Positions 9,966 to 64,000 of a stretch of 64,000 nt of DNA are shown here, one piece after another. The translations under genes and the position numbers were made by a program. The stretch spans positions 434,001 to 498,000 of the forward strand of contig OZ361261.1 of NCBI GenBank assembly GCA_977018835.1, in the 5' to 3' direction. The first letter of the stretch is position 1. Every line of letters starts with the position of its first letter. Under the pieces are notes generated by a model. The model worked only from the letters and a program-made list of their open reading frames with translations. It was not told the origin of the DNA and ran no database searches. The DNA comes from Minutocellus sp. GHC0000111 (lineage: Eukaryota).

Positions 9966-9971
9966 AGAAAG

Positions 9972-11240: not shown

Positions 11241-11349
11241 ATTGATTTCTTTAAAGTTATTTGTATGCGAGATGAAGAAATCTTGGCCCGTTCTCCTCCA
11301 ATACACCAAGGCAAGCATCCGCAGCATCCAGAACACCAATGCGATGATA

Positions 11350-12037
11350 AAGGGTTCTGCTTCGACGGAAAGGTTGAAAGGCCAGTATCTTATCTCTCCT
11401 CGCCGTCGGTGAAGTTGAAGGTCACCTTCTGCTACCTACGCTGGAAACAGAATAAAACTCACTGTCTTGTGCTAGTAATAAAATCACGCACACTCAACCT
11501 CAGAAAACCACCGACATACCAACCGATAGAGCACTCTGAGAGGGTTCTCCTGATGTATTTTGAGCCGATGCAATCGAGTTGGTGATAGCAATTAGTTGCC
11601 TTGAACATGACCCTTTTTCGCTAACTTCGCCTGCGTGAAAAATGGCCACGTCACGGAGAAAGCGAACATAAAATTTATCAGGTTGGAGAAAATTTTATGT
11701 TTCAGAAAATTGGCGAGAAAAAAAGATACTAACAACCGCCTAGTAAAAGAGAAAAGGTTAATTGCCCCAACAACCAAGGCAGATAGAGCAATTCTGGAAA
11801 AAAAACTTTTACTATGAATTGTTTTCTTGAGGAACAGTCCTGTCGTTGCGACAAAAGAAAAAAATCGTTTCTTTGCCGATTTCGAAAAAATACCCCCCCA
11901 AAAAGACCGCTTTCCGGCCGTTTCCAGACTTTGTCGCAACCACCAATCGAAAGAACGCATAAATTTACCTGGGGTAACTCTGTTCGACTTGTGCCGTATC
12001 TCTATCCGTTCGGGGGGCAAAGAGGGTGTCCCACCTC
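11350..12037. mobile_element. Probable DNA-transposon end remnant (Sola-like GAGG terminus at 12037)
   Basis: A-tract-rich noncoding stretch ending TATCTCTAT..GAGGGTGTCCCACCTC, which resembles the end TATCTCTAT..GATGGGTGCCCCCTC at 50276-50305. The left boundary is approximate and no partner TIR was found. Confidence 0.4.
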
Positions 12038-12065
12038 GTCAGTTTCATTCTCGTTCCAGCGTGGT

Positions 12066-13787
12066 ATGGCAAAGCCAAAAGCCAAGCAAACTAAAACGCT
12101 CAAGAGGCGAGGCTCAAGCCCAGATAGAGGAAGGCAGGAGGCGGGCCTATCTCGCTGGCTGCGCAAATGTCCAAACATGATGTATATCGGCTTCATTTCT
12201 CTGCTCTTATTATTCTGCGTTCGCTTGACCTGGGTCGCAGGAATGACCGCTGAGGAGGGGTGGGCACATGCAGAGAAAGTGCTTCGCGAACACATAAGCC
12301 CTCCTACTTTCCCAACCGATGCCGATCGGAGCATACCGGACTTTGGTGCCGTAGGTGATGGCAAGACAGACTGTACCAAAGCGTTTCGGGATGCTATTGC
12401 CCTTTGCAGCTCATCTGGCGGGGGAAGAGTTGTGGTGCCGCCGGGTGGTGTCTACTTGACTGGACCCATTGTGCTGAAATCGAACGTAAATTTGCACGTG
12501 CCAGAGTCGGCCACAATACGCTTCAAACAAGATCCGAAGGCATATCTTCCACTCGTGAGAAGTCGGTGGGAGGGCGTGGAGCTAATGAATTATTCTCCAT
12601 TAATTTATGCCTACAAGGAAGAGAACGTTGCCATCACCGGCGATGGCACTCTCGATGGCAACGCGAATGCCACCGCATGGTGGCCCTGGAAGTACGGACC
12701 GCAAGATGCTGGACGTGATCGACTGTTCCAAATGGCCGAAGATGATGTTCCTGTACAGAAGCGATTATTTGGTGAGGGATACTACCTACGGCCAAACTTT
12801 ATCGAGCCATTCAAATGTCAGAACGTTTTGATTGAGGGGATCAAGATTGTAAATTCGCCGATGTGGGTCATCCATCCAACATTTTGCAATAATGTCATCG
12901 TGAGATCTGTAAATGTGGACAGTCATGGACCAAATAATGATGGGTGCGATCCGGACTCATGCAAAGATGTATTGATTGAAAATAGCGTTTTCAATACAGG
13001 AGATGACTGTGTGGCTGTAAAGAGCGGTCGAGGTGATGATGGACGGCGTGTCAACATACCTTCGGTGAATGTAATTATGCGCAATTGTACAATGAAGGAC
13101 GGTCACGGAGGACTGGTGGCAGGATCTGAGATTGCTGCAGGTGTTCGAAACTTGTATGCCGAAGATTGCAATTGGGACTCGCCTTATCTAAGGTATGGTT
13201 TGAGAATCAAATCTAACCCCTTGTTTGGAGGGCAAGCGGAGAACGTATTTGTGCGCAACGTTCAAATGAAGCAGGTAGAGAGAGCCGCCATTCGGTTGAA
13301 CTTTCATTATGAATGGGTTGAAGAGGGCCCTCATATGCCATCGGCCAGCAATATATTTGTAGAAAATGTAACATCGGAAAGAACGCAGTACGCTCTACAG
13401 CTGGAAGGTCTGAGCGATGCTTTGGCCAAGGATATTTCGATAACCAACAGCACATTCCACAACGTGCAACGGCAAAACGTTATCGACTTCATCGACGGAC
13501 TGGAGCTAGAAGACGTCGACATTCAATATGTCCCTTATCGTCCAAGTGGTCAGGTGGTTCTCTTTGGTTTTGTAATATTGCTATGTGGAGCTGCATGTTT
13601 TGTCGAGAAATATGTGCATCGACCAGTTCTTATAAAGACACCGTTGGGCGTGGTGGATTTATCCAAGCAAATAACATTTGTGCAAAAATTGTTTGGGAGT
13701 AATGGTTTTATTGGGTCCTCTTTACAATCAACTGGTATCGAGATGCCACCAAAAGAAGAAGGTGAAGAAGAACGGTTAGTGCCATGA
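12066..13787 (+). CDS. GH28 polygalacturonase-family glycoside hydrolase, membrane anchored
   Basis: All four GH28 motifs are present (NNDG, GDD, GHG, RIK), plus FGAVGDG and RWEGVELMNYSPLIYA. Hydrophobic segments lie at both ends. No intron. Confidence 0.9.
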   Translation: MAKPKAKQTKTLKRRGSSPDRGRQEAGLSRWLRKCPNMMYIGFISLLLLFCVRLTWVAGMTAEEGWAHAEKVLREHISPPTFPTDADRSIPDFGAVGDGKTDCTKAFRDAIALCSSSGGGRVVVPPGGVYLTGPIVLKSNVNLHVPESATIRFKQDPKAYLPLVRSRWEGVELMNYSPLIYAYKEENVAITGDGTLDGNANATAWWPWKYGPQDAGRDRLFQMAEDDVPVQKRLFGEGYYLRPNFIEPFKCQNVLIEGIKIVNSPMWVIHPTFCNNVIVRSVNVDSHGPNNDGCDPDSCKDVLIENSVFNTGDDCVAVKSGRGDDGRRVNIPSVNVIMRNCTMKDGHGGLVAGSEIAAGVRNLYAEDCNWDSPYLRYGLRIKSNPLFGGQAENVFVRNVQMKQVERAAIRLNFHYEWVEEGPHMPSASNIFVENVTSERTQYALQLEGLSDALAKDISITNSTFHNVQRQNVIDFIDGLELEDVDIQYVPYRPSGQVVLFGFVILLCGAACFVEKYVHRPVLIKTPLGVVDLSKQITFVQKLFGSNGFIGSSLQSTGIEMPPKEEGEEERLVP

Positions 13788-22129: not shown

Positions 22130-23485
22130 ATGCCGAAGAAGAGCAGGCGCAACCGAGCGAAGGGAGGGGCGGCCGGCACGGGTCGCGGGGCTTCGGGAGT
22201 CGGTAGCTTCAACAGCAGTACCCAACGAGGAATGGACCTTGTGTCGTACTGTCCTGACAGGGATCGGAAGGTAGCGTTGTGGATGTACGAGTGGTCGGCG
22301 GCCAAAGATCGTCTCATGAAGGACATTCTCGATGCATTGGCTGAAGATCCTCGCATTCATGCCCTGTTCGATCCAGACTGCCTCTCTCCCACACTCGTCA
22401 ATTTATTGGAGTATTCCACTGCGAACTTTGTCACAATGACTTCTGGCAGCACGCCACACTCACTATTAGATGCTACGGCTCTCGCTGCTACCAAACCCTT
22501 ACTGGTTGAGGCGGCGAATATGGTTTTTAGGAACGGGTGCAAAACCAGCCTCCCTCCTCTCCAGCGCCGGAAAAAGTACGTGGAGGGTATTATCGATGAT
22601 GCCCGTGGTCTGATGGCCATCGGCCGAGGAGATGTGGCGGCTGCTCTGTGCAACTTTGGGCTGAATTGTGAGCAAACTAAGATATTTTGCGACGCGTTCC
22701 TCGCGGAGTGGGACTGTAATATTCACTCAAGCGATGCGTTTGTGGATGGCAAGGCGAAACGTGCGATGAAGATTATCTCGGAGAACGAGACAAATCCGAT
22801 GCATACTCGGGCCCATGCGTTGGTACTTCGAGGTATGATGTCTCATGAGTTTGAAGAGTGTCCAAGTCCAGCCACTGCCGCCTATTTCCGCAGGGCACTT
22901 CGATACAGCCGCAAAATTGAGGCAGGCGAAATGCGTTCCATCGACTTTGTTTTGCAGGGTGTCTCGTTACAACTTGACGTCAAGGAAAGAGTTGAGCTGA
23001 ATTTGGATGTGGCAAAGCGGTTACTTTCCTTCTATGAAGGACCAGGTGCATGTGTGGGGATGACGCTTTTGGAGAGGATTTCACATTTTGATAGAAGTTT
23101 CCCTTGCATTCCAAACTACCTGGCTATCGGAGGGGCACAATGCGACCACTGCGGCAAAACGGCCGAGGAAGCTGGTCTTCCCTGCTTGCACAAATGCAAG
23201 CAATGCCGCATGGCTCTTTACTGCAGCGTCGAGTGCCAGGCCGCCAGATGGTCTGGCGGTGGACATCGGGAGCACTGTAAGAAGTTTGGGCGATTTGGGG
23301 TTGGCGACAAGCTTGTTTTGTTTGGTTTGAAGAAACGATCTGACCTCAATACCTCCCTGGTCGAGGTAGTTGGCAAGACTATGCCCCATCGTTTGAACGT
23401 TCGTATCTGCTTCCCTCCCGAGCACGAGGGCACCGTCGTTGCTGCCAAGAAGACGAATCTGCGCCACCACCGCCCGATGAGGTAG
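22130..23485 (+). CDS. MYND zinc-finger protein
   Basis: CDHCGK..CKQCRMALYCSVECQ..W..H.EHC followed by an SH3-like GLKKRSDLN tail. Confidence 0.85.
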   Translation: MPKKSRRNRAKGGAAGTGRGASGVGSFNSSTQRGMDLVSYCPDRDRKVALWMYEWSAAKDRLMKDILDALAEDPRIHALFDPDCLSPTLVNLLEYSTANFVTMTSGSTPHSLLDATALAATKPLLVEAANMVFRNGCKTSLPPLQRRKKYVEGIIDDARGLMAIGRGDVAAALCNFGLNCEQTKIFCDAFLAEWDCNIHSSDAFVDGKAKRAMKIISENETNPMHTRAHALVLRGMMSHEFEECPSPATAAYFRRALRYSRKIEAGEMRSIDFVLQGVSLQLDVKERVELNLDVAKRLLSFYEGPGACVGMTLLERISHFDRSFPCIPNYLAIGGAQCDHCGKTAEEAGLPCLHKCKQCRMALYCSVECQAARWSGGGHREHCKKFGRFGVGDKLVLFGLKKRSDLNTSLVEVVGKTMPHRLNVRICFPPEHEGTVVAAKKTNLRHHRPMR

Positions 23486-23944
23486 GTAGAAAAGTACAAC
23501 CAAAGAAGAGAAATTTCGGGAAACAAACAAATTGAATCATCCAAGAGCCTGCCGTCACTGTCATTGTGGTAGCGAATAAGATTCAAATGCTTGAGTATAT
23601 TTAGCAAACGAGGCGGTCATGTTCTACATTAAATATACGACTTCATTTATCATTCCAATCTCTCGATCTCGTATCTGCTTCCCTCCCGAGCACGAGGGCA
23701 CCGTCGTTGCTGCCAAGAAGACGAATCTGCGCCACCACCGCCCGATGAGGTGATGAGGTAGGTAGAAAAGTACAACCAAAGAAGAGAAATTTCGGGAAAC
23801 AAACAAATTGAATCATCCAAGAGCCTGCCGTCACTGTCATTGTGGTAGCGAATAAGATTCAAATGCTTGAGTATATTTAGCAAACGAGGCGGTCATGTTC
23901 TACATTAAATATACGACTTCATTTATCATTCCAATCTCTCGATC
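23401..23944 (+). repeat. Tandem duplication (268 bp + 276 bp) of the MYND gene 3' end and UTR
   Basis: 23401-23668 is repeated at 23669-23944. The only difference seen is an extra GATGAGGT in copy 2. Confidence 0.95.
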
Positions 23945-35924: not shown

Positions 35925-36429
35925 GTTGGCTGGTCGATTAATTATGGTTTGCGAAATGAATGGGGGGAGATTGGGTGGGTGGGGCTAATGCTTGAACGAG
36001 GAAACGAGGAATGCATGTAATGACCGCTGCTGTATCTGCACAAGACGAAGTTCAGATGGGGCTCGCCGCAGCAGAGCCACAATTGTGTATGAATCTGCGA
36101 CTTGCACGAAACAGCTTGCTGGTAGTGGTGCCTTGGGCGGGTACGCCTGTCGTGCCGTTCAATTTGCGGTCATATCAAACGGATATCAAGCCGCCGGTTG
36201 CGAATGACCATGGCGCAAGGTCCGGTCAAATGTACTCTTTCAATTGCGTACGTAGGCCTAGTACAGAGCCTACTACGTAGCTACGTTGTACCCCAGAAAA
36301 GCTCCCAAAAACCAGAAAACCCCAAATGTAGTTGATGGAAATCGACCCGTTTGATGAAACGCTCCCCCCCGTTTGATGGAATTTGACCGCGTAAACAGTT
36401 AGTCGATCAAACGCTTCCGGGGCCATTTT

Positions 36430-36915
36430 ATGGCCCCGCTACACCGTGACAACATCGCTCGAGCTCTCTCTTGCATTAATAAATACCACCCAACCATGTC
36501 GCTTCCCAGCCGCGACACCGCAGCAGCCTCGCGGCCACAGCGCCGCAGCAGCGACATTGTCATAGAGAAGGGTGTGCGTGCGGGCGCAAAGCGATTCCGG
36601 CTGTGCTTTCCCGGCGTAAACAGTAAGAAGAAAAAAGGGTGGAAAGCCCAACCCGACGTTGGGTACTCTCTTTGCAACGATTTGCGGCCCAGTGCGGCAA
36701 GGAAAAGGAAGAAGCTGGGATACGATGATGCCACCAACCTCAACAATAGATTGAAGGCATACTATGCAATAAAATGTGGAAAGTACTCAGCGGATGACTT
36801 GAAAATTCAGAGCGCAGCCAATCTTATGAGCATGGGAGTGAGAGCTAAGGCTGGCACAACATCCACTTACTTTGATTTGGCGGTAGAGATTTACAACAGC
36901 GAGAACGGTGCCTAA
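36430..36915 (+). CDS. Small basic protein with an AP2-like DNA-binding pattern (element accessory ORF)
   Basis: FPGVNSKKKKGWKAQ...RKKLGY...AYYA resembles the AP2 pattern (Y/F)xGV...WxA...LGxF...AY. An AT-rich shared terminator region follows (36916-36997). Confidence 0.55.
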   Translation: MAPLHRDNIARALSCINKYHPTMSLPSRDTAAASRPQRRSSDIVIEKGVRAGAKRFRLCFPGVNSKKKKGWKAQPDVGYSLCNDLRPSAARKRKKLGYDDATNLNNRLKAYYAIKCGKYSADDLKIQSAANLMSMGVRAKAGTTSTYFDLAVEIYNSENGA

Positions 36916-36997
36916 AATAGTAACATGATAACCTATTTACATGAAAATACTAATGCACTTATGATATTATTATAAGTTACATAATACACATTTATGA

Positions 36998-38491
36998 TTA
37001 CAAGTTACCAGCACCAGCAACAGCCTCCTCGGTGGGAAACTCCGTTACAGCACGTGAACCATCGGCGACTGTCTTGAAAACGGCAATCTTTTTAATCTGC
37101 TCTACAATAGCAGGAGTTCCCTCTCTGTCCCCGTCTGCCATGTATTGCAAAAGAATTTCAAGGGCTGCCCACCTTCCAACTCTCTTCATGATGTGCAAGT
37201 CAGCACCACACATCCTCGCCCACAAAGTCCCGGAGTACCGGATCGAATGCGATGAGTACTCGAGCCACTTTTCATCCCCAGTAATTTCATAAGCTCTGTC
37301 AAAAACAATCTTGACATGCTGCTCATAGGTAGCAGCAGTGATATCAAATATTTTTTTGTCATCGTCGGCTAGTCCATTAGTCTCAAGGTAGTTGAACCAG
37401 TCCAACAAGAGATAGACAATGTCAAACCTAGCCTGATTCTCAATAGTGTTGCTGTGGAATCGAATGGGATACTGTGCATCAACAAATCTTATGTTTCGGC
37501 TCTTCCAATTTCTCCAAACAAGCCTTATCCAGTGAGGCAGAGTCGATCCTGTGAAGTATTCATCTTCCATCGGCGGGTACTCCACCTCCTTCTGCAAAGG
37601 ACAATGTGTAGTAATGCAGGACGCCCGGCCCATCACGTTGAGCTGGAGCATCATCATCACCCAAGTGCGTTTCTTAACCTCTTCGTGCTTCCGAGGATGG
37701 TTCATGCAAGCGTCATGTAGAAGCGGAAGCTCGGTGATGAGAAAGGACGGTGCAGACTTTTTGGTGCGAAAATGACCACGCATCCATTTCTTTATCTCCG
37801 ACGAAAGCGTTGCGTCCTTTCGATCAAGTTTTGGCCCACCAAAAAGAACTGAAATGGAAGATATTGCAGCAAGTTTCAGCCCCAAAGTGCCCCAGTTGTT
37901 ATTTCTGCCTGCGACGTTTACACCACCAAAATTGGTCGTCGTGCTTGGTGATGAGTGAAGGTAACTGCACCAGTCCACGACGGCACCGGCATCCGGCGCC
38001 ATCCACCGCAACCGTCGCACCTGTCCCTCTTCAAGATCTTCGTCGGTAACGTGCGCCGGCACAATATCCTCGAGGCGGAAGGAGCCATTGTCGTACGCTT
38101 CGATCTGTTCCTTGACCTGAACGATGTACTTGGTGTATTCGTTCTCGGGCATGTGCTTGAGGAGGAAGCACTCCAACTCAGCGAAGTACTTCACCGCGCT
38201 AACTGTTATGGCGTCACTGCGGAAGCGATTGCAGTGCCTCTTCAGCGCGTCGATGTTCAGTATATTTTTGGAAGTGATGGCGTTATTCGGCTCGAAGTGG
38301 ATCTTCCATGCATAAAGTAGGACACACGCATTCGGCACCGTTTCCTTGTCGCTCTCGGTTGCCTCTCGCCAATGCTTGACCGCCTCGTCGTACACACGCA
38401 AAATGCGGAATTCCATGCCCTCCATCGGAGCAGGAGCAGGACGATTTCGGCCAGCATCGGCCCTTGCCCGAGAAGCGGAACGATCTGCCAT
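36998..38491 (-). CDS. Tyrosine recombinase/integrase
   Basis: Catalytic residues appear in order: R (MGRAS), K (NWKS), HxxR (HSIRYSG), W (GRW) and Y (QYM). The ORF is uninterrupted, and the first ATG is at 38491. Confidence 0.85.
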   Translation of the reverse strand: MADRSASRARADAGRNRPAPAPMEGMEFRILRVYDEAVKHWREATESDKETVPNACVLLYAWKIHFEPNNAITSKNILNIDALKRHCNRFRSDAITVSAVKYFAELECFLLKHMPENEYTKYIVQVKEQIEAYDNGSFRLEDIVPAHVTDEDLEEGQVRRLRWMAPDAGAVVDWCSYLHSSPSTTTNFGGVNVAGRNNNWGTLGLKLAAISSISVLFGGPKLDRKDATLSSEIKKWMRGHFRTKKSAPSFLITELPLLHDACMNHPRKHEEVKKRTWVMMMLQLNVMGRASCITTHCPLQKEVEYPPMEDEYFTGSTLPHWIRLVWRNWKSRNIRFVDAQYPIRFHSNTIENQARFDIVYLLLDWFNYLETNGLADDDKKIFDITAATYEQHVKIVFDRAYEITGDEKWLEYSSHSIRYSGTLWARMCGADLHIMKRVGRWAALEILLQYMADGDREGTPAIVEQIKKIAVFKTVADGSRAVTEFPTEEAVAGAGNL

Positions 38492-38835
38492 TGCTGCCGA
38501 GAGTGTGACGAACAAGGAGCCACCATCGCTCCTGCGAATGGCACGTGTCTTGCTCGAAAAACGACTGGTGGTCAAAAACTGTCGATGTGACGTGTCAAAA
38601 CACATCTTGTGCCGTATCTTTTCCTATCCACTAGCTAGGGCAGATGCTGCCGCCGCTAAGCGATCAACCTGACGACTTTGTCGCTTCGTATCTCGAGCAA
38701 TATTTGGATTCATGCATCAAGCGACGCATGGAGTTCATCGGCAAGACGAGATGAGGCCAAATCCGGTGTCTTTGGGGGGGTTTACGGGCATTTATGTTCC
38801 GTTTGATCAAATAGTGACGTCATCCAAGCTACCTA

Positions 38836-39630
38836 ACGTTGTACCCCAGAAAAGCTCCCAAAAACCAGAAAACCCCAAATGTAGTTGATGGAAATCGACC
38901 CGTTTGATGAAACGCTCCCCCCGTTTGATGGAATTTGACCGCGTAAACAGTTAGTCGATCAAACGCTTCCGGGGCCATTTTGTGGCCCCGCTACACCGTG
39001 ACAACCCAAACAACATCGCTCGAGCTCTCTCTTGCATTAACAAACACCACCCAACCATGTCGCTTCCCAGCCGCGACACCGCAGCAGCCTCGCGGCCACA
39101 GCGCCGCAGCAGCGACATTGTCACAGAGAAGGGTGTGCGTGCGGGCGCAAAGCGATTCCGGCTGTGCTTTCCCGGCGTAAACAGTAAGAAGAAAAAAGGG
39201 TGGAAAGCCCAACCCGACGTTGGGCACTCTCTTTGCAACGATTTGCGGCCGAGTGCGGCAAAGAAAAGGAAGAAGCTGGGATGCGATGATGCCACCAACC
39301 TCAACAATAGATTGAAGGCATGCTGTGCAATAAAATGTGGAAAGTACTCAGCGGATGACTTGAAAATTCAGAGCGCAGCCAATCTCATGAGCATGGGAGT
39401 GAGAGCTAAGGCTGGCACAACATCCACTTACTTTGATTTGGCGGTAGAGATTTACAACAGCGAGAACGGTGCCTAAAATAGTAACATGATAACCTATTTA
39501 CATGAAAATACTAATGCACTTATGATATTATTATAAGTTACATAATACACATTTATGATTACAAGTTACCAGCACCAGCAACAGCCTCCTCGGTGGGAAA
39601 CTCCGTTACAGCACGTGAACCATCGGCGAC
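38836..39630 (+). mobile_element. Truncated tandem second copy of the YR element (direct repeat of 36283-37069)
   Basis: About 790 bp near-identical to copy 1, with 11 substitutions, a 1-bp indel and a 9-bp indel. It includes the accessory ORF (ATG->GTG) and the last ~24 YR codons, then stops abruptly. Confidence 0.95.
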
Positions 39631-41642
39631 CAACCTCGGCGCCGACGCCGTATTCCAGCAACGTGACGGCGGTGCCACCGCCGCTACCACCGGGACCACG
39701 GACCAGTTCCAGTTCCGGCACGGCCGCCCGGGCCCACGCCTACGCGTCAAGTCGGATGGCCTCGTCGAGCTTTGGGGATTTTCACGTCGGTCATTTAAAC
39801 GGCGGCGCCGGGAGCTCTGCTTCGGCGGTGTATTATTCCGGCAATTCGTCGGCCACAACTGCCGACCACGTGTCGTCGGCTGCTCCAATGTCGAGCGTCG
39901 GAATACCGTCGCAGCAGCGATCGCTAAGCACGGACGATGCCGACATTGCCGCTGGGCTCTACGTGGGCGGTGGCAGAGGACGGCACGTCGCTGCATCGAC
40001 GTCGTCCTCGAAGCATCAGCAACACCGCAGCAGCACCGGCGCTCGTCGCCGGGCGCCGCGGCAGAATGCTCTGGATGCCTTCCGGGATTCCGAGGCGGAC
40101 TTTTTGAAGCTCAGCAGCGTCGGCAGCGTGGCGGGCAGTACTGGCACGGCGGGATACATGAGCGGGGCCGAGAGCAGCATCGGGACCATACCGACCCCAC
40201 CCACCAGTGGCAACATGGTCTTGAACTTGCCCACCTTGGACAGCAAGGGCGAGGGCGGTGGGAAGGGCGCGGATATCGACCACCGGGAGCAGATACTTGT
40301 CCTTGGCATTGATATTTCGCACCTGTCTCGGAAGAAGCAGTTCATCTATTGTGCTGGCGGAGTGTTTTTCTTTTTCGTTGCTCTATGGGTTCCTCCAGGA
40401 ACTCATTAGCGTGACATTGTGCTGTCGACAGCTGGGACTCTTCTTAGCAGTGGCGCAATTTTCGGGATATACCTTCTGGAGCTATCTATTGCGAGAGTAT
40501 GTCAATGAAAAATAGGCCCGGCACCGAAGAAGAAGCATGAGGATGAATGGCGATGGTGGTGGCAATCATGCATTGGAGTTGGATGGCGGTGCACATGGAG
40601 AATCGCCATCGGCTATATGTTGGCGCAACGGGTCCAGTATAGTTCGATCTATCTTCAGAAGAGGTGGCAAATCACCAAGTGCTGGGAAGAAGGGACCCCA
40701 GGGCAAGGGAACTATTCCCGTTCCTATCGCAACTTATCTCGGCCTTTCCATCTTACGTGCAATTGATCTCGGTGCTACCAATCTGGCAATGCAATATGTC
40801 ACGCCAAGACCCTCATGAAGTCTGCCAGGGTCGTCTTCACTATGCTCTTCGGCGTTATCGTAGCCAAGCGTCGATATCAGCTCGGTGACTACGCCGTCGT
40901 AATGATCATGGTCGCTGGTCTTGCCCTCTTTATGCATGCCGATGCCAACTCGAGCGCCGTCTTTCAGCCCTTTGGCATCATGCTCCTCGTCCTTTCGCTC
41001 AGCTGCGATGGTGCTATATCCAACGTGTCCGAGAATTTAATGAACCAGCTTGGTGTCGGCCAAGACGAATTCATCTTCCGATTGTACAGTATCGCTACTC
41101 TTGCCATTTTAGCCGCGGCAACATTCAAGGGTGACATGACAGAGGGAGCTAGATTCCTTTTCCTTCCTGGAACTTACGATGAGATCAACAATGGCGAAGA
41201 GCCTACGTGGTCAGTGGCTAGAAAAATATTTGTCGTGGTTCTTTTTTCTACCATGGGATTTTTCGGTTCTAGCTGTTCCGCTGCCATTACCAAGCACTTT
41301 GGTGCCCTTACCATGTCTATTACCTCTACCGCAAGAAAGGCAACAACACTTTTCCTTTCGTTTGCTTTCTTCAATAACGTCTGTACCCTCGAGCATATTA
41401 GCGGTATTGTTCTCTTCATCACAGCACTCATCATGAAGAGTCTCAGAGCGAGTCGAAAGGGACGTCATCGTAGTCATTCCAGGAAAAAGCGACTGCGAAG
41501 ATCACCAGAAAGAACACCACTTGTGAACTCCACGAGTAGCATTGAAATTGGAAGTGGAGGTGCCGATGCTGCTGCACTTCATCAGCGAAGGACTGGCAAC
41601 AGCCCTATGCGCCATCCCAATCGTAGCTCCAATGTTGTATAA
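39631..41642 (+). pseudogene. SLC35B-family (PAPST2-like) nucleotide-sugar/PAPS transporter pseudogene
   Basis: Motifs VLGIDISHL..QF..GGVFFF/SLLYGFLQELI, TNLAMQYV..AKTLMKS and FGAL..ITSTARKATT. The 5' end is replaced by element DNA. Lesions are a +1 shift near 40375, TAG at 40513-40515 and a ~7-nt loss near 40800. Confidence 0.8.
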
Positions 41643-42574
41643 TAGTATAATGCTTGTGTAAAGTAAAAGGATTTTGCGCACATGTAAAGTTGATATATTG
41701 GCCAATTACCGGTACCGGCGCTGGTACCGGTAGATAGCAGCCAGCCAGTCCTTGGCTTTTCAATTCTTGCTTTGCAATGCTCGCTCGGCACAGCCCCATC
41801 TCGTCTTGTTTCGCCGGTCGGATGAAGCGTTTTTCGGCAGAAGACGAACACTTCACGAAGAAACCCACCAAAACCCAATCTCGTTCGTCACCCATTCTTT
41901 GACCGTCCAACACCATGGTGGTCCGTCGGCGTTGCGCCGGCGCATAACTATATTTTCGTACCAAACACGCATTCATTATCATGTTTGGATGTAGTTGAAG
42001 CTTACTGCATCCTCAGATTGGCCTCCGCTGCGTATCAACGCCACGAACCATCGGCCTACTTTTCCTCCATCTGTCGGCCGTTCGTTTCTCTGGGGTGGTA
42101 CCATTGCTCCGTCTTTGTGCTCGTCGTGCTCCCGTTGTGATGCCCCAGACCCTCTGGTACTTTCCCACGTTGCTGTTGATGATAAACTGCCGGGATTGCG
42201 CCGCACCCCCCGCATGACCGACTCTCGCTGATCCCGACCGATCGCATCCCCACTCGACCTCCCCCGGAATTCCGACAATAATTTTGCGCCCGAGGAGAGA
42301 CAGATAGTATTGGGATAAGTTTATGCAACAATCAACCCGACAAAGGGACTTTTTGGTCTGGGAGATAAATGGGTGAGTTAAGAAGGACGTGATGTGTTTG
42401 TTTGGGTGTACTATTTACTTTTTTGCTCAATCGCGACACATGCTGTTTGTAAAAGTTGGATTATTGTGCAAAATTCATTTGTTGTTGTGTAGTAGTAGTG
42501 TAATTTCATTTTCTAATTTTATACATGCCCTGCTCCCATCTCTACATCCTCATCTCCATCGGTGGCCATCATGA

Positions 42575-44364
42575 TCATTTGTTGGCGCTTGTCATCAGTT
42601 TCTGCTTTTTAACAGCTTCGGTCCTAGTCCTTTTCCTTGTTCTTGCCACCCGAGAGTTTCGCTCCCGCCTCTCCTCGACCTTTGGATTGGATGCCCTCTC
42701 CTCAGCCTTGAACTGCGCCGTCTGTTGGGCCTCATGTCCCTTGACGCCCTGAGTCCGACGATCTTCCTTAACGCCCTCTTGGTGGGCTCGCTCTACAAAC
42801 GATTCGTCGAGCCAACAGATGCCGCCCCATCCATTCTTCACTAGCCAAATGTGTTGGTCCAAGATGTGATCTTCGAGTAAGTGCCACTTGGGCGTCATGC
42901 TAATACCGATTGCCCGTGCTTGCTTGAGGGCACTTGCAATCAATGCTTCAAGCTCTCTCACAGCCTTCTTTGCCTCTCATCATCCCATTTCATGCACCAT
43001 TTCAGAAACCTGGAATGTGTTGCGTCAAGAGTGTGGAGCAAATTAGAGCAAGCTTTGCAGAGCTCTTTGATGTCGTCATCCGTCATGCCATCTTCCTCGC
43101 GATTGTGCTCTAGGAGAGTTCCTTTGGTGGAGGTGTTGTGGTGGATGAACTCTGTTGTCCTTGGTTTCTTCTTGTTGTTGCCATCAGAAATGTTAATAGA
43201 TAAAGCTCTCCAGCATTCTGCCAGCACTGCCCTTATTTTACCTGAGTCGGCCGCCTCAATGCCGGCCTTTTTCAGGAAATGGAAGTGAGGGGCATCGTCA
43301 TCCTCGGCATCATCGACAGCTCCCATCTCTGGCTCGCCATCACCGTGCTTCTGACGATTCTTCTCAAAGTGCTGCTGCATGCATGCTTCATGTGTAGCGT
43401 CCTCTCTTGCAATGTCAGCTTCGTCCTCATAACAGGGCACACAGTCCTCGTCTTCGTCGTCATCGTCCTCACTGATCTCGCCGGCCTCCGTCGTGGTCAG
43501 GGTGCCCACCGTCCCAACATCGTCGTCATTGTCCCACCCATCGTCCTGGCCGTTGTGCCCACCAGGGAACTTCTGGGCCTCGAGCAACATCTGCCTGTTG
43601 ATTTCGTAGTCCATCGCCGCATGTCCCACCGATATATGTGGTGCGACCGACTTGAGGAATGCATTACATGCCTTCGTCAAATTGAGCCGCGGCGGCGGTG
43701 TTTCGAGGCGAAATTGTTGCTCGACCGTGACCATGTCACGTCGAAAGCCAGCCATCCATCATCATGGAGAGCGTCGGCTGCACGAGGATTGATGGAACCG
43801 AGGCGAACAAATATGCTCTTTTTGCATGGGGTTCGCTGAACGTCGTCGGCAAGGCAGTGTCTTGACACCATTTCATCCCATCCATTCTGGTTGTCTGTCC
43901 TCACAAAAAACACATCGCAGTCTTCGTGTTTCTTCTTCTTCAAACCCAAGATGCCCGCAGTGCACATGACGGCGCCGTACATGATGGGACTGCATCCCAA
44001 CACATTCATCAAGGAGTCGTTGTTGTTGCCGATGAAATTGTAGTAATGAAGTTCCTTTCTGCGAAGACGGACGAGCAGTTCAGCCAGGGCGTCCTGCACC
44101 GCAACTCTGTCTGCGGTGTTGACCGCGGGATTGCGGCCGTTATTTTTTTTTAAACCAGCGAAAAAGCTGAAGACGATGGAGACTAATTGTCAGCCTATCT
44201 TCATCTGGAGTAGCTGATTTTGCGCTCATACAGTCAGCTAGCTCCTTAAAGGTTGCCATCGCACCCTTCATCCGAGTAGCATGCGAGTTGGTCCGGCCGG
44301 TTTTAGGTGAGGCACTCCCCGAATAATTGTCAAAAAGTTCCTCTAATCTTTTGGTTTGATTCAC
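42575..44364 (-). mobile_element. Degenerate, internally deleted transposase-like gene (Transib/RAG1/Chapaev-like C-terminal motif)
   Basis: Four consecutive frameshifted ORF pieces. The last has TPKWHLLEDH..G..DESFVERAHQ (H-x4-H followed by an acidic catalytic-type E). The region is too short for a full DDE core and is depleted in Tyr. Confidence 0.55.
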
Positions 44365-44942
44365 TCGACTGATTTAAAATCGCCGACTTCACCGACCATC
44401 ATTGCCATCAACCCCGAGAATTCCCTGAGAAGAGATCTCTCATCTTGACTCATAACCTGATCGAGGTCGATCATCCCTCATCCCCAAAACGAAACGATGG
44501 CGCCATTCATCGGCTCGCATCAACTCTCTCAGTAGAGATGAGGAGTTGCGCTCTCTTCGGTCCATAAAACAGACCATGCAGAGTATTTTGTGAGCTCGTT
44601 GCCTCTGTGTCACCAAAATTGATGGAGGAGATAGCTCCACAAATTTGGTGTGGCGGAAGCTGTGGCGGGCGCGCCACCGCCGCCACTATTATGCCCGAGA
44701 GGCGGATGATTATGATGGCCGAGCTCGTCATTCCATCACTCCCTCCACCCATGGATCAGCCAGATATTAGCATGTGCGAGGACTTTTTCAACTTTGAAAA
44801 AGTGCTGGCACAGGTGGTGTCGTGTCAAGGTCGAGCCTTTGCTAGCTGATCGCCTTCATCTTTCGTCGCGGCATCATTTATTTATGCCACCGACCAGCGC
44901 GAACAGCTGGAATGACATCTGTCAGGGAATACTTTTCGAAGG

Positions 44943-44980
44943 GACCAGCCCATCCCAGAATTTTCTGGGACGAGCTGGTC
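44943..44980. repeat. 18-bp-stem inverted repeat followed by a T-rich tract
   Basis: GACCAGCCCATCCCAGAA-TT-TTCTGGGACGAGCTGGTC, with 16 of 18 positions paired. Confidence 0.8.
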
Positions 44981-45180
44981 GTTCTTTATTTTTATTCAGA
45001 GGAGAATGAGACAGAATGATTGGCACATGTAGAGGAGAGAGGGATGAAGCACAGGATGCAAATTGGCACATTGGTACATGTACATGTACATGTGCCGTAC
45101 GAATCAACAATCAACCGCCTTGATGGAAGAATTGGTAAGTGGTACGTGTTAAATATGTGCCCAAATATTTATGTGTACAT

Positions 45181-48100
45181 TCATTGCTCCTCTTCATCCT
45201 CGTCCCCCTCTTCATCTGATGAATCATCAATGGCCAACTCTTCATCATCACCATCTAATCCGGTTTCTTCCTCTTCTCTATCGCTATCCCCGCCCTCATC
45301 ATCATCATAGGTAATAGTGCGATTCATGCACCCTCTTCTCTCATCTCTTCGAGGATTTGAGAATGGGCTTCCTCCCCGAGATACCGAGGATCTAGAGTAA
45401 GCACTTTGTTGCGATGGTCAGGATTCAAGCTCTGTCGATTGAGATTGTTGTCATCAGATATTGGTAGCATTTTGATGTCGCCTGCCAGAACATGGGATAC
45501 ATAAAATGTAGCCCTTGCCCGAGCTGCCAAAGTTTCCTCCGGATGATACCACCAGTATCGCGCTCCGTCTACTCTGTACAGGTAAGTGCCATCGCACATC
45601 ATTTCCCCCGTTTCTTGATCTGCATACGGCAATCCATCCCATCTCACCAAATAGTAGTCATACTCTGGATCGTCATTTACATCTACCGCGCCATACCCAC
45701 CGACCTCAATCAGGCCTGCTTCTCGAGATGAAACCGTTTCAAGGGTATCTTCCTTGAGCTCATCTATTTCATCGGGGTCTGATTTGTTTGTTGTTTGGAC
45801 TGATGTTATTTTCCAATCATTCAATCCCTCAAATATCTTCCAATATTTGCATTCTTTATTCTGCTTGAATCTCGGCTGCTCCTCGTCGCACTGCGGCCTT
45901 GTTTGTTCCGAGTTCCCAAGAGGTGAGCAAATTGTAGTGAGCGCGGATTCCGGTGTATTCTTTGTTGCGGACAGCAAGAGGAGGTGATATTGCTGCAAAT
46001 ACACTTTGGTGCTTGACATCTTCTGACGTTCGAACGTGGTTGTGCCTTTCACTTATTCTCACTTCATCTGCTTCTCGCTTCCGTCTCTTGTTGCCCACAG
46101 TTTTGACACCATCTTTCCTGTCAGGCTGGTCTAGCAGGCGCTGCATTTCCACCGCGAGGCTTTTGTGCTGGCCATCTTGATACAACTGTGGCTCCATCTT
46201 CTGGTCAGCATAAATGGCATCACAGTCTACATCAGGGGTCATTATGTCCCGCATCCGAGCAATGAGATATGCCTTGTTGGCTGCATTGAGGCCATCAACG
46301 TGATCTTTTCCGTGCCCTGGCGCCCCAAGAGCTCTATCGATAGTAATTTTATACTTGACGCTCAACCAAGAGAGAAAGAGTAAGACCACCGCACAACGAT
46401 ACTGCTTGGTGCAGCCGTCAGAGCCATCATAAATAGTAGAACCAATTTTCAACACCCCCGACTGAAGTAAATGATTGATTTGTACCTGCATGTGCTGATT
46501 TGTGCTGTACCTAGGTACGCATTCTGCATCTTGTCATCGGCGAGGTGAGCGTGGAATTGCATGGCTACCTTCTCATCTACACTACCCATCTCCTCGAGAT
46601 GAGCTGTGATTTCATCGTCACTCATTTCTTTCATTATTTCCAAAGCTTCCTTCTTCCAGTGCTCTACCGAGCAACCTTCCATCGACACTGTAGCGTTACC
46701 ACCGAAGTGCATCGACATAATCTCATTGTTGAGAGCCGCAGTGAGTCTCTCTGCGTAGTCTCGGTGGGTTAGCACGTCACCGGGCTTGGACTTCCAAACC
46801 TCCTTCCTCTCATTGCCGGTGTGGGAGTTGGATAAAATAAGAACATGGTGACGATGGTAAGCATATTTTTCGAGCGCTTTCAGGTAGTGTTGTTTGATAA
46901 AGATTCCAATCGGTTCAGATCTAGCCATGAGATATTTTCTTGTAGAAATCTTTCCGGCTTTTGGCTTTGGCACCTTGCTGTCAGGATCGTCTCCGATTCT
47001 TTGCTCGTAAGTTTCAATAAGTTCATCACATTTTGGGCAAGACTTGCTACGTAGAGGTAGCTGCTGCTCTGGATGAGAGCGGCATGAAGTAACACTCTCG
47101 TAAGTGTGAAACTTTATGCGGTCATCGTCGGCAGCCTCACCGGCCTCCTCGGGCATGACTTCGTAGGCAGGGCAATCTGAACATCGTCTCAAGACACAAC
47201 TCCAATGAGGAAATTCAAAGCCTTCGACATTGCCACATTGGATGCAAAGTAAAGCGTCCTTTGGATGTGGGTGTGTCGGACTCCCATCCTCATTCGTCGT
47301 CTTGGCCTTGTAACTTTGGTACCTCTCTTCCGCGGCCTCTCTCTCCGCAGAATTTTCGGCGACCTCACCAAAATTATCAACAGCGTCCTTCATTCTCTTT
47401 ATGCGACGACGACGATAGGCATTCAGAGAAGCCTGGTGCCGTTTCATAATAATGCAATACTCACACCCGCACATTACCTTGTGAGATTCTCGCATAGCGA
47501 CGAAGTTGGGCGGGATGATGGCTCGAAACTTCGTGTCGGATGTTATCTCCCTTCCTCGATCGTCACGAGCCTCCGGTATTTTGAGCGGCCCCTCGTACAT
47601 GCTGTTGTAGAGCTCTCGAATAGAGCACATCATCAACCTCTTTCGCACACGAACCTTCTCTCCGGTGTTGGCATCGCGAACGAGAATAGTGTCTTTTATT
47701 GTTGGAGACTCGACGATTGAGGGATGATTCTTTAGCCACTCTACTACTTTTTTCTGGAGCTCTTTGGACACCTTGCTCCACCCCTTCCTCTTTTTAACAC
47801 GAGAATACATTAGCCCTTCCTCTTTTGCTCCTACTTTGAACTTTGTCTTTCGATCCTTTGATTTCTTTACTCGCCGCTGAACCGTAGCTCTTGACCCTGG
47901 AAGCACCTTCTGGTAGTCAGTTGTTGTAAGCTTTGGAGTGCTCGAGGTAGAGGTAGCGGTAGAGGCAGCATTGGCATTGCATGCCTCAACTATTGCATCG
48001 TACAACACTTGCAGGGCGCTGGACTGATCATCATTTACCCGTCCTTTTGCAGCACCGTCACTCTTGAATAGTTCAGATGCGTGGGAGGTCAAGTTATCGA

Positions 48101-49454
48101 GAATCTGCAGCTTCTTTTCCGTATTATCCGGCACCTTCAGTCCAGAACCGAGAACAATTTTCGCTGCTTGCGGCTTGTTGGCAAATAAACGAAGGGCATA
48201 GGCCTGAACTTGCTCATCGCCAACGCTTTGGACAGCATTCAATATTACATTAGCTGCTCGTTCCTTTGCCTTTCTTATGGCATCGGCGGATGTCCTCGGC
48301 TGATTGTTCCGCTGATTGACATCAAAGGCAGAATAATTTATTGTTGGAACGAGAAGATTGTTGCCTCTTCTTTTTGCTCTCTCCTCCTCTCTTGATGCAG
48401 CTCCCAATCTCGATACTACAGGCATAGAAGAAATAGTAGATACCATTTCATTGCCTATAGCGGCAGCATCGCCGGTTAGGCTACCACTCTTGATTCCATC
48501 CTTGAGAGCAGTCATCATCAAATGAAAACAACGACCGACTGCATCTGATCCGGCAGCTCCGACCTCGACACCCTTCAGCACGTCCCCAATGCTCTTTCCG
48601 ATGCCATCAATACCGGTAGAAGTGCCGTCCAATGATGCAAGAATGGCTCCTCCGGCCGCTGCTCCATCAGAATCTGCCGCTGCATGTGGACCAGCACGGT
48701 CAGAGCCCACAGCAGACATGTCGGTGCTAGCTGTTGCTGTTGCATTGGAAGTGCCAGGGCCAACCGGATCGCGAGCGCGAGGAGGGCCGTCAGGAAAGAG
48801 TTCCGATGCGGAAGGAAAGGTGCTGGGCGATGGGTTGCTGCACTTGTCGCATGTGCTGGGACAATCGCAAGTACCAAAACAGAACGTGGAGATGGCGGAT
48901 GTGTCTGCCGGATGCGGAGTACCAGTACAGTCGGGAAGGGATGGCGGGATAGCTAACAACGATTGAGACCTTGATATCACCATTGTGTCAGTGGGTGGTA
49001 ATGGCGATGAGCGAAGTGTGCGGCGTCTACCATCCGCTTGTGCGCCGGCGGGGAGTGGTGCTGGTGGATGGAGCGGTCCGGTAGTGCGGCCGGTGCGTTC
49101 GTGGTCCGACGATGAGGATGAGGATGAGGACGCATCGTTCGCGATGCCAGCGGCAGCAGCAGATCGTTTACGCGTCGATGGTCGCATCGATCGGCCTTTG
49201 GTGAGAGTATGGGCGGCGGTGGACGAAGCGGAGGTATCGTCGTTTGACGGGGCGGATGGTTCGGACGACGTCCTTGTCGTCACGTCATTATTTCCGGGAG
49301 GCGAGGATGAAGAATGAGGGTTGGAAGAAGCTGATGCAGCAGGCGTCTTCCGAGCCTGTCTCTGCTGTCGCAGTCTTTCCTTCTTCGCCCTCTCTCTAGA
49401 CTCCTTTCGGGAGTATTTCTTGCCATTGCTGGTCTCTTCCTTTCCGTCGGTCAT
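45181..49454 (-). pseudogene. Sola2-like DDD transposase pseudogene (~1400 codons)
   Basis: Motifs MCGCEYC, C..C..CPAY, HRDYAE..EIMSMHF, SDGCTKQYR and PGHGKDHVDG (three catalytic-type Asp). Lesions are an 8-bp insertion at about 46511-46518, a deletion near 45882 and a frameshift near 45340 before the acidic tail. Confidence 0.7.
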
Positions 49455-50305
49455 GGTCTCGCAAAAATCGAGCGGCCGTGGTTTTTGCTTGATTTTTCCC
49501 CCTTTATTGCTCAGCGAGTTTGGCCACAGGTCTTGCTACGTCCCCTCTCTTCAGATGTCGAAGAATGGGGACATGTCCAGTTTGTTGGCAAAGAAGTTAT
49601 CCAAGTGTCATTTATTTAGGGGGTAAAATGCTGTTGAATAACCTAAATATAAATCAAAACAATCAACCTGTGTTCGAGTACGCGAAAAAGGGCCGCGGAT
49701 GAGAAGTGATACCGTGAGAGCCACAGCCGCCCAATCCACCCAGAAATGCAGAGACACACGCCCAAGATATGTATGAAAATGTTTGTATGGTTGATTGTTG
49801 TGGTTTTTGTTCGTATCCGCCCCCGAATCGGCCGCCAATCGTCATCTTTTTTTTTTGCGTGATTTTCCCCCCTCGATAGCTCAGCCTGTGTGCGGAATTT
49901 TCGAGCCGGCCCTTCGATGTCCCCAACCTTGAATGTGTCTAGAGTGGGGACGTAAGCGAGGCAGGCCGGCTCGATCAAGTCTTTTTGCCATATTTCAGGG
50001 GGAAAAGTTGGTCCGGCAGGAAATTGCGACTTTTCCCGTACTTCGCCGCGTTGGAAACACGGACGACGGAAAGACGAATGTCCAGTTTTTGGGTCGAGCG
50101 GCTCACCTAAAGCTGGACCACGACACATGTAAAAAACACCCGTTACTTAGACTTTAACAACAACATGCTTCTGCTCGCATTCAACTCATCGGGGCACCCG
50201 GGCCATCTGCTGTAGCGCAACTATCCACACGAATCTGACTACGTGCCGGAACAAAGGAAATCTAGCAAAAAAACTATCTCTATTTTCGCAGATGGGTGCC
50301 CCCTC
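45181..50305 (-). mobile_element. Sola-like DNA transposon with one terminus retained
   Basis: Upstream noncoding A-tract region ends (minus strand) 5'-GAGGGGGCACCCATCTGC at 50305, matching the GRG/GAG termini described for Sola elements. A partial inverted copy lies at 50191-50210. No distal TIR was found. Confidence 0.5.
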
Positions 50306-61257: not shown

Positions 61258-61922
61258 GGCATACCGCTGGCACTACCGATGCGATACCACTGGCAACTGG
61301 CAGCTGCCGGTTTGGTCTTCGCGATGGTCGTCATGGCACCATGGCACCTTGCAACCTTGCGTCAGCATGCGGCATTTGTTCCATGGTGCGTCGCACAGAA
61401 GATTCTAAGATTAAAAGATCTCTGTGTTTTGCGTTTCGTTTTCTCGTGGGAAACTAACTGTTTCCGCAGCAGCCAGCCATCGCCAGCAGCAGCAGCAGCA
61501 GCACACTTCAATTGACTTCATTGCTTCATCCATGGCGCCAATGGCGCCGGGAGCAATGGTGACTTGGGGGCAGCGCCGTGACGTGGCGTCCCTCTCCTCA
61601 TTTTTGCACAGGAACGTTCGTGCGGTAGTATTGTCTCTCCTTGGCTTATAAAATATGAAACGTTTTCGTTTCCTGAGCGAGATTTCTTCCGAATGAATGA
61701 ATGAAACCTGCCGACGCCATGGATGCTTCGCATCGTCGGATTTGAATGAACGAATGAATCGTGCCGACGCGATGGATGCGAGGAATGTTTTCGCTGCTTC
61801 GCATCGTCGGATTTTGCGGCCCTTCAAGGCACTGCAATCTGCCTCATAAAACAAAGATCGAACTGAAAGAACACAAAAATACAATATAATTTGAGCAACT
61901 CAGTGTGGAGGAACGAAAAGAC

Positions 61923-64000
61923 ATGAAGATTTCAACCGTGGCCTTTGTGGTGGCCCTCGCCGGTGTGACGAGCGTTGCTTCTGGACGTCGCCTCGGGGAG
62001 ACGGGTCATTATCTGGCGGAGAGGAAGAAGAAGGCGATGATGACGAAGAAGATGAATCGTGGAGCCGATGAGAAGCATTTGGAGATGTCCAAGAAGCGAG
62101 GCAGGAACGTCAGGGACGAACGTCACCTTTCCACTGCCGCAATCATCCAGGCGTCTTGTAGCGTCCCGGATCGAAGCTGGCTCGGTGATGGCGAATGCGA
62201 TGGCGGTGTCTACAACGTCGAGGAGTGTGGTTGGGATGGAGGCGATTGCATCATTGATGAACTTCCAGATTGTCATGTTGATGACCCATCCATGATTGGA
62301 GATGGTACATGTGATGGGGCAGAGTACAATATTTTTGCTTGTGATTGGGATGGTTCTGACTGCATCCACAATGATTACCCCGATTGCCATGTGAGCGACC
62401 CTACTTACTTGGCCGACGACCACTGCGATGGTGGTGAATATGCGACAGAAGCTTGCGGGTGGGATGCAGGAGACTGTGATTCGGGCCCAGATGGCACCTG
62501 CGATGTTTCCATGCAATCCTGGCTCTCAGATGGGCGCTGTGATTTGCTTCTAGAAGAGCACAACACTTTGCAGTGTGACTGGGTAAGTGTTCGTATAATC
62601 TTTCTGCTCTTCTTCACAATTCGCATGCTCTTCATTTCGGCTCTTTACTACTTTTTATCTGATGTCGCTTGATTTGCTCTCTTTCTTCGCATCCCACAAA
62701 AGGACGGTGGCGATTGTATCGTCCCTGAATATCCTGATTGTCATGTTCAGGTCCCCGATTTTCTAGGCGACGGGGAATGCGATGGCGGTGCATATTCGAC
62801 GCCAGAGTGTGGCTTCGATCTAGGGGACTGCCCTGCCTATCAAAGTGGTCGTAACGACGATACAGGGGGTGGTGAAAACGCCGGTGTCCCTATGCAACGT
62901 CTCCTCTACCTAAATGACTTCGAGGACCCCAATCGTCGTGTTTTCTCTAGTTGTGGAGGCGGTGCCGACATTAGAGATGATGTCATCAACATTCTTTTCT
63001 CTAAATCAGGCTTCAAGTTTCACCAGCAAGAGACCGTCGAGGTCGTCCATCTCGATGGCCTCCAGAGAAATCTCGATCACTCTGAAGGAGACCCGATTTT
63101 CGAAAACCCTCAAGGCGTCGGTGGGAACTTTGCCATCGGCATGTTTTCCGATCAAGAAGAAGACAAGCTTTCGCTCACACTAGACACTCACGACTTTTCA
63201 TTCCTCAACATCGGCATGAGTCTCGCCGCTGCAAATCTTCCTGGATGCGGCGGTCCATTCACCTACGAGAACCGTTTGTACAAACCAAAAGTCCACGTGT
63301 CTGTTTTGGACAGTCCCGAACTTGAAGGAGACTTCAACGGTTGGGGTGAGCCGCCCCTCGATGAAGGTGATCTCGAAGGAAGTGAAGTAAGTGGGTCAGA
63401 TCTCGCGGATCTACCATTCAAGCTGGATTGGGGCTACGATATGATTGGTCTGGATGTATCCTCATCTTCTGACGGGTACGTGACGATCGTCTTTGATCTT
63501 GAAAGCGTACCGTATGCCATCTTCGATGACCTCATTATCGTGGGATCCTCAACCAAATGGCCCTGTAATGAGGACGAACCATATGTTGAAGATCCTGAAT
63601 GCGATTGCTCCAAGGTCAGTTGCGCTGTTGGCAAAAAATGCGATCCTTACTCCTGCCTGTGCTTCGATGAGGATCTGCTTGCACCGTGTGTTGCAGTTAT
63701 CGATGAGGACGACGACTTCAACTGCAACAACTGGAACGGCAATACTCCATGCACGCAAGAAGATCTCTGGGATCTATTTAGGCAGGAATATCGCTATCGT
63801 CCGTTCTGCCTCCTGATTCCAGCTGATGAAGCCAACGATCCCCTCTCCCTTCCCGACAACTTCCTCAACGACGGCAACAAAGTTATTAAGTACGGCATCG
63901 ATCGTAACGGGGCTATCGAGGATTGGGCCTCATATTGTGAATTGGACGGTTACACCTCCAACAATGTCCAGTTCATTGGCCTGTTCGTTGATAACTCCGG
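61923..64000 (+). CDS. Secreted LNR(Notch)-like repeat protein, two or more exons, runs off the window
   Basis: Signal peptide and five GDG.CD..YN...C.WDGGDC-type repeats. Intron at 62583-62702. Exon 2 is open from 62703 to the end of the window and finishes GLFVDNS, possibly the start of a vWA MIDAS motif. Confidence 0.8.

Follow-up and report, generated by a model that had tools for sequence, protein, structure and literature searches.

TpA-directed A-to-G hypermutation in a RAG1-like DNA transposon family of the diatom Minutocellus

RIP in fungi acts mainly in a CpA context, through the RID methyltransferase and with premeiotic timing. Abstracts on RIP describe its changes as C>T transitions. 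A second system is that of the alga Bigelowiella natans, in which de novo TpA to TpG/CpA changes occur in integrated NCLDV/virophage DNA at about 1000 times background and in some lines only, according to the main text of a preprint (Mettrop et al., bioRxiv 10.64898/2026.01.13.699255). That text proposes an ADAT2-like enzyme, as a candidate only, and places DDE endonuclease domains among the TpA-poor genes; the words "diatom", "polymerase", and "flank" are absent from it. Our literature searches, mostly of openly accessible papers, found no report of TpA hypermutation in a diatom.

Here we describe a scar in Minutocellus sp. GHC0000111, in a stretch of 64,000 nucleotides (contig OZ361261.1, positions 434,001 to 498,000) that we refer to as the window. 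The scar is a real, polarised TpA-directed A>G hypermutation that works like the B. natans process, and it differs from that process in host lineage, target type, and measured finer context. The original prediction, made from the letters of this DNA, pointed to two ORF pieces with few Tyr residues. Both pieces are part of an internally deleted, non-autonomous RAG1-like DDE DNA transposon, which is comprised of the following features.

42300..44312, minus strand: RAG1-like DDE transposon copy, internally deleted, placed by contig depth and sibling alignment
43680..44150, minus strand: 5' part of the transposase frame, with conversion at 2 of its 5 variable Tyr codons (Cys at 43964 and 43826)
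42958..43755, minus strand: middle ORF piece (original prediction), 7 of 9 variable Tyr codons converted
42575..42976, minus strand: 3' ORF piece (original prediction), with conversion at both of its variable Tyr codons (Cys 42817, His 42736)
42519..42608, minus strand: C-terminal tail and TAA stop, in another frame, assigned by sibling comparison
43108..43113, minus strand: internal-deletion junction, about 570 aa of the full-length protein gone
42782..42889, minus strand: transposase His/Glu motifs KWHLLEDH ... DESFVERAH, genuine and not Tyr-derived
42734..43623, minus strand: span of nine Tyr-derived codons in the two predicted ORFs, recognised by sibling variation

The right end of the element lies near 44312, where contig depth, high across 42300-44315, falls about 100-fold in run X1. 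RAG1/Transib-like transposons have terminal inverted repeats that begin with CAC and a 5-bp target duplication, and ProtoRAG alone also carries a RAG2-like partner gene. A minus-strand CAC is present at 44309, near the right end, and a matching left end was not found. The left end, at or left of 42300, was not located, a search of 41640-42520 gave no terminal inverted repeat, and an empty-site junction was likewise not found. The siblings align across 42335-44150. The transposase is one frameshifted minus-strand reading frame from 44150 to 42519, made of the two predicted pieces, an upstream piece, and a downstream tail. In siblings P0011 and P0013 the TAA stop is replaced by Gln with read-through, as expected from TAA to CAA. 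The internal deletion removes the first two putative catalytic aspartates and is common to 34 of the 44 siblings; three other siblings are full length. Further deletion derivatives are seen in contigs within 42372-44297 (joints 42436-42665, 42462-43396, and 42492-44297), and other copies carry different 5' sequence at 44147-44150.

The sibling set contains 44 proteins from homologue searches, mostly 88-98% identical and nearly all on large contigs, with the first cluster represented by 15 of its 23 members. P0018 (48 aa, unrelated) and the short fragments P0033, P0034, P0039, and P0041 were excluded from the counts, and P0003, at 51% identity, served as the outgroup for polarity. The predicted structure of the full-length sibling P0002 (mean pLDDT 76.7) matches the RAG1 core (E 2.5e-12), BbRAG1L (ProtoRAG, 4e-8), and HzTransib (1.6e-3), and these matches, together with the internal deletion, identify the element as a non-autonomous RAG1-like DDE transposon. 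Language-model neighbours of the transposase include RAG1 clusters at 0.90-0.94. The P0002 model has the RAG1-core fold, but its identity to RAG1, ProtoRAG, and Transib is only 10-12% with a TM-score of 0.40 of the query, and the diatom transposase differs from all three by a long coiled-coil insertion.

P0002 contains the motifs GADHG, GAGDLAF, CVCCD, KWHLLEDH, and DESFVERAH, which we take to map to the D-D-E triad and CxxC/His zinc ligands; the window copy retains only the last two. The K, H, E, E, and H of KWHLLEDH/DESFVERAH are invariant in 25 distant homologues and unchanged in the outgroup, with H806 and E827 of P0002 likewise invariant in 25 homologues. Pfam and PDB sequence searches gave no match naming the transposase, a profile search with it matched coiled coils solely, and a metagenome scan with P0024 gave 12 pattern matches but no true relative. 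A search with the catalytic core returned P0002 alone. P0002, P0021, and P0024 are RAG1-like transposases at full length, about 1100 aa each, whose catalytic domain contains a long coiled coil; they also show Tyr/His/Cys and Ile/Thr variation.

The residue counts first given for the two ORFs are exact: 2 Tyr, 13 His, and 8 Cys in 42958..43755 and 0, 5, and 1 in 42575..42961, for 2, 18, and 9 in 393 aa. Against 16 pooled window ORFs (9138 aa) there is a Tyr deficit (P=0.0009), a marginal His excess (P=0.035), and ordinary Cys (P=0.35). The prediction had placed these His and Cys residues at aromatic positions, which is borne out for 9 of the 27, those that vary between Tyr, His, and Cys in siblings. 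Their codons start at 43623 (H), 43557 (H), 43443 (C), 43383 (C), 43371 (H), 43017 (H), 42996 (C), 42817 (C), and 42736 (H), and among the listed differences in public contigs, DNA alleles at 42816, 43016/7, 43371, 43442, and 43556/7 back them. For most of the other residues the idea does not hold. Thirteen are identical in the outgroup, the transposase histidines among them, and four show neither Tyr/Cys variation in siblings nor Tyr in the outgroup; His 43392 is fixed in all 26 siblings covering it, yet is Tyr in the outgroup. As judged from these alignments, two thirds of the His and Cys (17-18 of 27) are genuine residues. Of the motifs cited in favor of converted aromatics, HEACMQQHF and GGICW are correct, KELCKACSNLLHTLDATHSRF is correct for its last His alone (one of four), and APHFHFL and DQHIW consist of genuine residues.

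Across the 44 siblings, 16 codons vary between Tyr, His, and Cys. Their 352 alleles are 103 Tyr, 114 His, 132 Cys, 2 Ser, and 1 Arg, with both Ser alleles coming from one near-duplicate sibling pair, and the window copy is converted at 11 of the 16. Both His (CAY) and Cys (TGY) are present at 14 of them. CAY and TGY differ by two steps, and the intermediate can only be TAY or CGY. At the 13 codons it covers, the outgroup shows Tyr 10 times, Phe twice, Ile once, and never His, Cys, or Arg; together with the scarcity of Arg, this indicates that the ancestor was TA. The conversion of TAY to CAY/TGY proposed at the outset is therefore supported by the Tyr found at these columns in siblings and outgroup alike, and public contigs carry the TA, CA, and TG alleles in DNA. 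Five ATA codons show both Thr and Met among siblings, with Ile in the outgroup at four. Over the 520 codons covered, TA-class changes make up 57 of 121 variant pairs, versus 27.6% of possible non-silent transitions (P=4e-6); they comprise 48 of 64 variants seen at least twice and 341 of 430 when weighted by copies. Judging from these comparisons, the direction is TA to CA or TG, and RIP polarity and CpG decay are excluded. The sibling counts are based mostly on predicted proteins with codons inferred from window DNA, so that silent sites are invisible, and the siblings are not fully independent (four near-duplicate pairs). That a TpA-directed A>G process with this direction has acted on the RAG1-like family is, in our assessment, almost certain.

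At the DNA level, 30 of the 34 differences listed inside the element in public contigs are of the TA/CA/TG type, covering 22 of 26 sites; three of these TA/CA/TG sites are non-coding, and at 42878 and 42905 the listed allele is silent. The underlying read tables hold the best 40 of 86 and the best 40 of 93 differences, at thresholds of 5% and 25%. The same alleles are found in contigs from four runs, four samples, and four studies. TpA itself is depleted: at 43001-44000 its observed/expected ratio is 0.27, below that of every other kb when the window is cut into 64 non-overlapping ones (mean 0.58, sd 0.11), and the element CDS has 28 TpA observed versus 51 expected (P=0.0003). We rejected the TpA ratio alone as proof, since single-copy 61301-62300 is equally low (0.256). 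This latter stretch sits between two divergent genes and has small imperfect repeats near 61690-61810.

The element directly to the right provides a control.

44313..50270, minus strand: adjacent low-copy "Sola-like" element (label of the original prediction), control, not hypermutated

In the Sola-like family (15 siblings), TA-class changes account for 12 of 40 variant pairs, versus 29.8% by chance (P=0.55), and 2 of 117 TA sites are hit. Among the best-supported differences listed for the host region, 2 of 29 are TA-type and 15 of 29 are transversions. Tyr content is normal in the neighbouring ORFs, as had been noted, at 2.2% in 46452-49535 and 3.1% in 37001-38623; Pfam at its cut-offs gave no support for the labels "Sola-like" and "YR". 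Since the RAG1-like siblings are all hit and the Sola-like family and host are spared, the process is neither regional nor private to the window copy. The claim that the effect is not regional thus stands, the adjoining family being at chance level, but the claim that it is copy-specific fails, as none of the 44 siblings is free of converted sites.

The process affects some repeat families, and load is unequal between copies. Load variance between RAG1-like copies is above all 2000 shuffles, the extremes being 9 of 20 scored sites converted in P0021, which is full length, and 21 of 21 in P0007. Site association between copies (0.14) is barely above that in shuffles (0.11), so most hits likely occurred after each copy had landed. 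Two columns fixed as His or Cys against an outgroup Tyr suggest, as far as the alignment can indicate, earlier hits in a founder copy. In run X2, the depth of invariant contigs is 9,000-12,300 for the RAG1-like element, approximately 100-113 for the host, and 600-680 for the Sola-like element, the last being about six times single copy. This suggests about a hundred copies of the RAG1-like element and about six of the Sola-like one, with depth being no strict copy number. The Sola-like family may be spared only through younger age: the family that is hit is high-copy, the one that is not is low-copy and 98-99.9% alike, and age and copy number are confounded.

The Sola-like siblings are mostly 98-99.9% alike and distant homologues 28-41%, and some siblings are free of the frame breaks found in the window copy. 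A small higher-copy stretch lies within the end of this element at 49645-50270. Positions 50080-50130 resemble the RAG1-like right end (44280-44329) in inverted orientation, and could represent a related miniature element.

A similar TA versus CA/TG difference is present between two repeats in the left part of the window.

36283..39630, no strand assigned: 796-bp direct repeats (36283-37069 and 38836-39630) flanking the "YR" ORF, found by repeat comparison

Nine of the 11 substitutions between them are TA in the left repeat and CA/TG in the right, with no outgroup polarity. All nine fall among the 20 TA sites up to 36825, and 0 of 24 TA sites differ at 36846-37046 (a split chosen post hoc), which suggests a tract boundary. 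Elsewhere in the window, a tandem duplication of about 268 bp over the 3' end of a gene (23401-23944) has zero substitutions and one 8-base indel. From 20389 onward there is what we take to be a SAF motif after a signal peptide, which, with the gene content, points to a diatom host.

The specificity of the process can still be read from the family because conversion is incomplete: TAY > TAR > AAY, pure transitions, and an absence of strand runs. This fingerprint can serve for testing candidate enzymes. The A>G, CpG, transversion, and AAY/AAR site counts omit the 24 codons at which the window is already converted, and the 3'-base and RTAY counts omit four near-duplicate siblings. By 5' base, A>G hits occur at 20 of 32 TA, 12 of 108 AA, 3 of 137 CA, and 3 of 188 GA sites, with CA and GA at background level. 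AA sites are hit solely before a pyrimidine (AAY 12/45 versus AAR 0/63), and at an allele frequency of 0.0095, about a tenth of the 0.117 at surviving TA sites. The converted share at TA by 3' base is 0.42 for T, 0.40 for C, 0.19 for A, and 0.06 for G (P=2e-4), with 82% of RTAY sites converted versus 41% of other TA sites. Of the TA sites that survive in the element, 6 of 36 are RTAY, versus 301 of 709 in host ORFs and 35 of 139 in the Sola-like ORF; the deficit is clear against the host ORFs and slight against the Sola-like ORF.

The changes are near-pure transitions (approximately 99%), with 246 His/Cys versus 2 Ser alleles at the 16 Tyr codons. Transversions are seen at 29 of 2233 possible sites and, at TA, in 2 of 248 changed alleles. 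Both strands are affected about equally (195 CA versus 168 TG alleles). Strand-coordinated bursts were looked for and none were detected, as neighbouring hits agree in strand at 0.49 versus 0.50 in shuffles. C>T changes are present at 11 of 99 CpG versus 7 of 332 non-CpG sites in the RAG1-like family (P=4e-4) and at 1 of 134 CpG sites in the Sola-like family. This CpG decay suggests methylation of the RAG1-like family, and it is from the decay alone that we infer methylation and silencing. TEs are the main CG-methylated targets in P. tricornutum, according to the accessible text of PMC9998398.

Deamination of A to inosine would produce the pattern seen here: nearly pure A>G change at a single dinucleotide, close to saturation there while the background stays at 1-2%. 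The likely agent is a DNA adenine deaminase of the host that acts on silenced repeats, an inferred candidate in which we place moderate confidence. Deamination to inosine would strike the A of single TpA sites, spread over many cell generations, with replication then fixing A:T to G:C. The first hit would destroy TpA on both strands, making CG doubles rare. Targeting would track the methylated, silenced chromatin of high-copy repeats, and the outcome would be transposase decay, a defence like fungal RIP in effect but of opposite chemistry.

Known deaminases agree with this candidate in part. TAC is the preferred motif of TadA-type deaminases, and ABE7.10 has the 5' order TA>CA>AA>GA, in the accessible text of PMC8065034; the native TadA motif is given as UACG in a source available in part. 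However, the 5' order here is T then A, closer to the WA of Pol eta than to ABE7.10 as described there, and this counts against a deaminase, as does the preference of amphioxus ADAT2 for GAA. The hot spot of ADAR2, UAG, is the least-hit 3' context in the RAG1-like family. More tentatively, diatoms, and perhaps SAR as a whole, could possess a DNA adenine deaminase dedicated to silencing repeats. It would recognise T-A-pyrimidine where high-copy repeats are methylated, edit bases singly on both strands of chromosomal DNA, and thereby inactivate DNA transposons.

A Y-family polymerase of the Pol eta/iota type could instead have left these changes during error-prone patch repair of the methylated repeats, which we consider unlikely. 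In this scheme, mismatch repair would be drawn to the T:G pairs left by 5mC deamination, and the polymerase would place G across from T at WA while filling the gap. The observed context follows the antibody rule as given in the accessible text of PMC8749460 (TA, TAT/TAH favoured, 3' G negative, AAH>AAG), even though the frequencies of TAH and TAG are not significantly different in those antibody data. Pol eta also makes T to C changes at TA hot spots in vitro, per the accessible text of PMC9723645, CpG decay coexists in the RAG1-like family, and many small patches would leave no strand coordination. What fits poorly is the purity and depth of the scar: about 70% of variable Tyr codons are converted with other changes at 1-2% of sites, transversions at TA and the frequency of AA changes are as low as given above, and a quarter of POLH errors in vitro are at C/G in the portion of PMC6423074 available. 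CpG hits are also far rarer than TA hits, so that the recorded triggers are too few.

Another possibility is that TpA in silenced repeats carries a base modification, such as methylated A or oxidised T, which deaminates or mispairs later on with no dedicated deaminase involved. Such a mark would explain why the changes keep to one dinucleotide, affect both strands, are pure transitions, and stay within marked chromatin, all of which are seen. We nonetheless regard it as quite improbable, since the weak AAY class requires a second explanation; we also know of no TpA-specific mark in diatoms.

ADARs have the 5' order U>A>C,G, which the order here resembles (their U preference is also given in the B. 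natans preprint), and the element sequence is present in RNA runs, where DNA carry-over is possible. ADAR-like RNA editing followed by reverse transcription is still highly improbable: the element is a DDE DNA transposon, the UAG hot spot is its least-hit context (3' G 0.06), and each copy mixes CA and TG without strand runs, a mixing that largely refutes this route.

Genome-wide mutation bias, GC-biased conversion among copies, or assembly error would accord with the low TpA throughout the window (0.58) and with siblings that may share one assembly. Each is very improbable given the near absence of TA-type differences in the host region, the chance level in the Sola-like family, and the recurrence of the same alleles in the contigs of four studies. 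Gene conversion follows no dinucleotide rule. Lastly, the opposite direction or ordinary decay, as RIP-like CA/TG to TA or CpG deamination from ancestral CG (Arg codons), is scarcely credible: CpG decay does give CA and TG at one site and some is present, but one ancestor cannot be both CA and TG as 14 sites would demand, a CG ancestor conflicts with Arg in 1 of 352 alleles and with an outgroup of Tyr, Phe, and Ile, and TpA is depleted rather than enriched.

The scar likely reflects a genome-defence process of DNA editing, and it can be placed among the known systems. The UAG hot spot and single edited strand per molecule of ADAR-type editing are not seen here, with 3' G least hit and no strand runs. 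As in Pol eta antibody hypermutation, TA exceeds AA, 3' G is disfavoured, and T>C occurs at TA (accessible text of PMC9723645 and PMC8749460); unlike Pol eta, for which broad errors would be expected, non-CpG C>T (7/332) and transversions (29/2233) are rare while TA is near saturation. As in fungal RIP, dinucleotide-specific transitions riddle repeats and spare unique genes. However, RIP creates TA and the diatom process destroys it, and we rejected RIP on the direction TA to CA/TG, the depletion of TpA, and C>T at CpA in only 1 of 116 sites.

The closest likeness is to B. natans as described in the preprint's main text, with A>G/T>C at TpA, both strands, hardly any transversions, foreign or mobile DNA, and uneven activity. 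Confinement is also seen here, with 30 of 34 listed element differences but 2 of 29 listed host differences TA-type, and a mobile Sola-like family that is spared. Unlike the rhizarian B. natans, in which that text describes two viral regions, the large one single-copy, the host here is a diatom and the target a high-copy DNA transposon. The B. natans changes are de novo and all on TpA, whereas the diatom family carries a historical load of about 70% at variable Tyr codons; relative to the same account, the 3'-pyrimidine preference and the weak AAY class (12/45) may be the diatom family's own. In the literature found, targeted A-to-G mutation of a genome is described for a single alga, in viral inserts and with a candidate enzyme. 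The present family proves the direction at the population level, and does so for a DNA transposon of a distant lineage. In genomes with such TA erasure, TE ages and protein annotations are distorted. If a deaminase is the agent, this would be a new genome-defence pathway and a natural DNA adenine editor; if the dedicated diatom enzyme exists, it would be the A-to-G counterpart of fungal RIP and a natural genomic adenine base editor.
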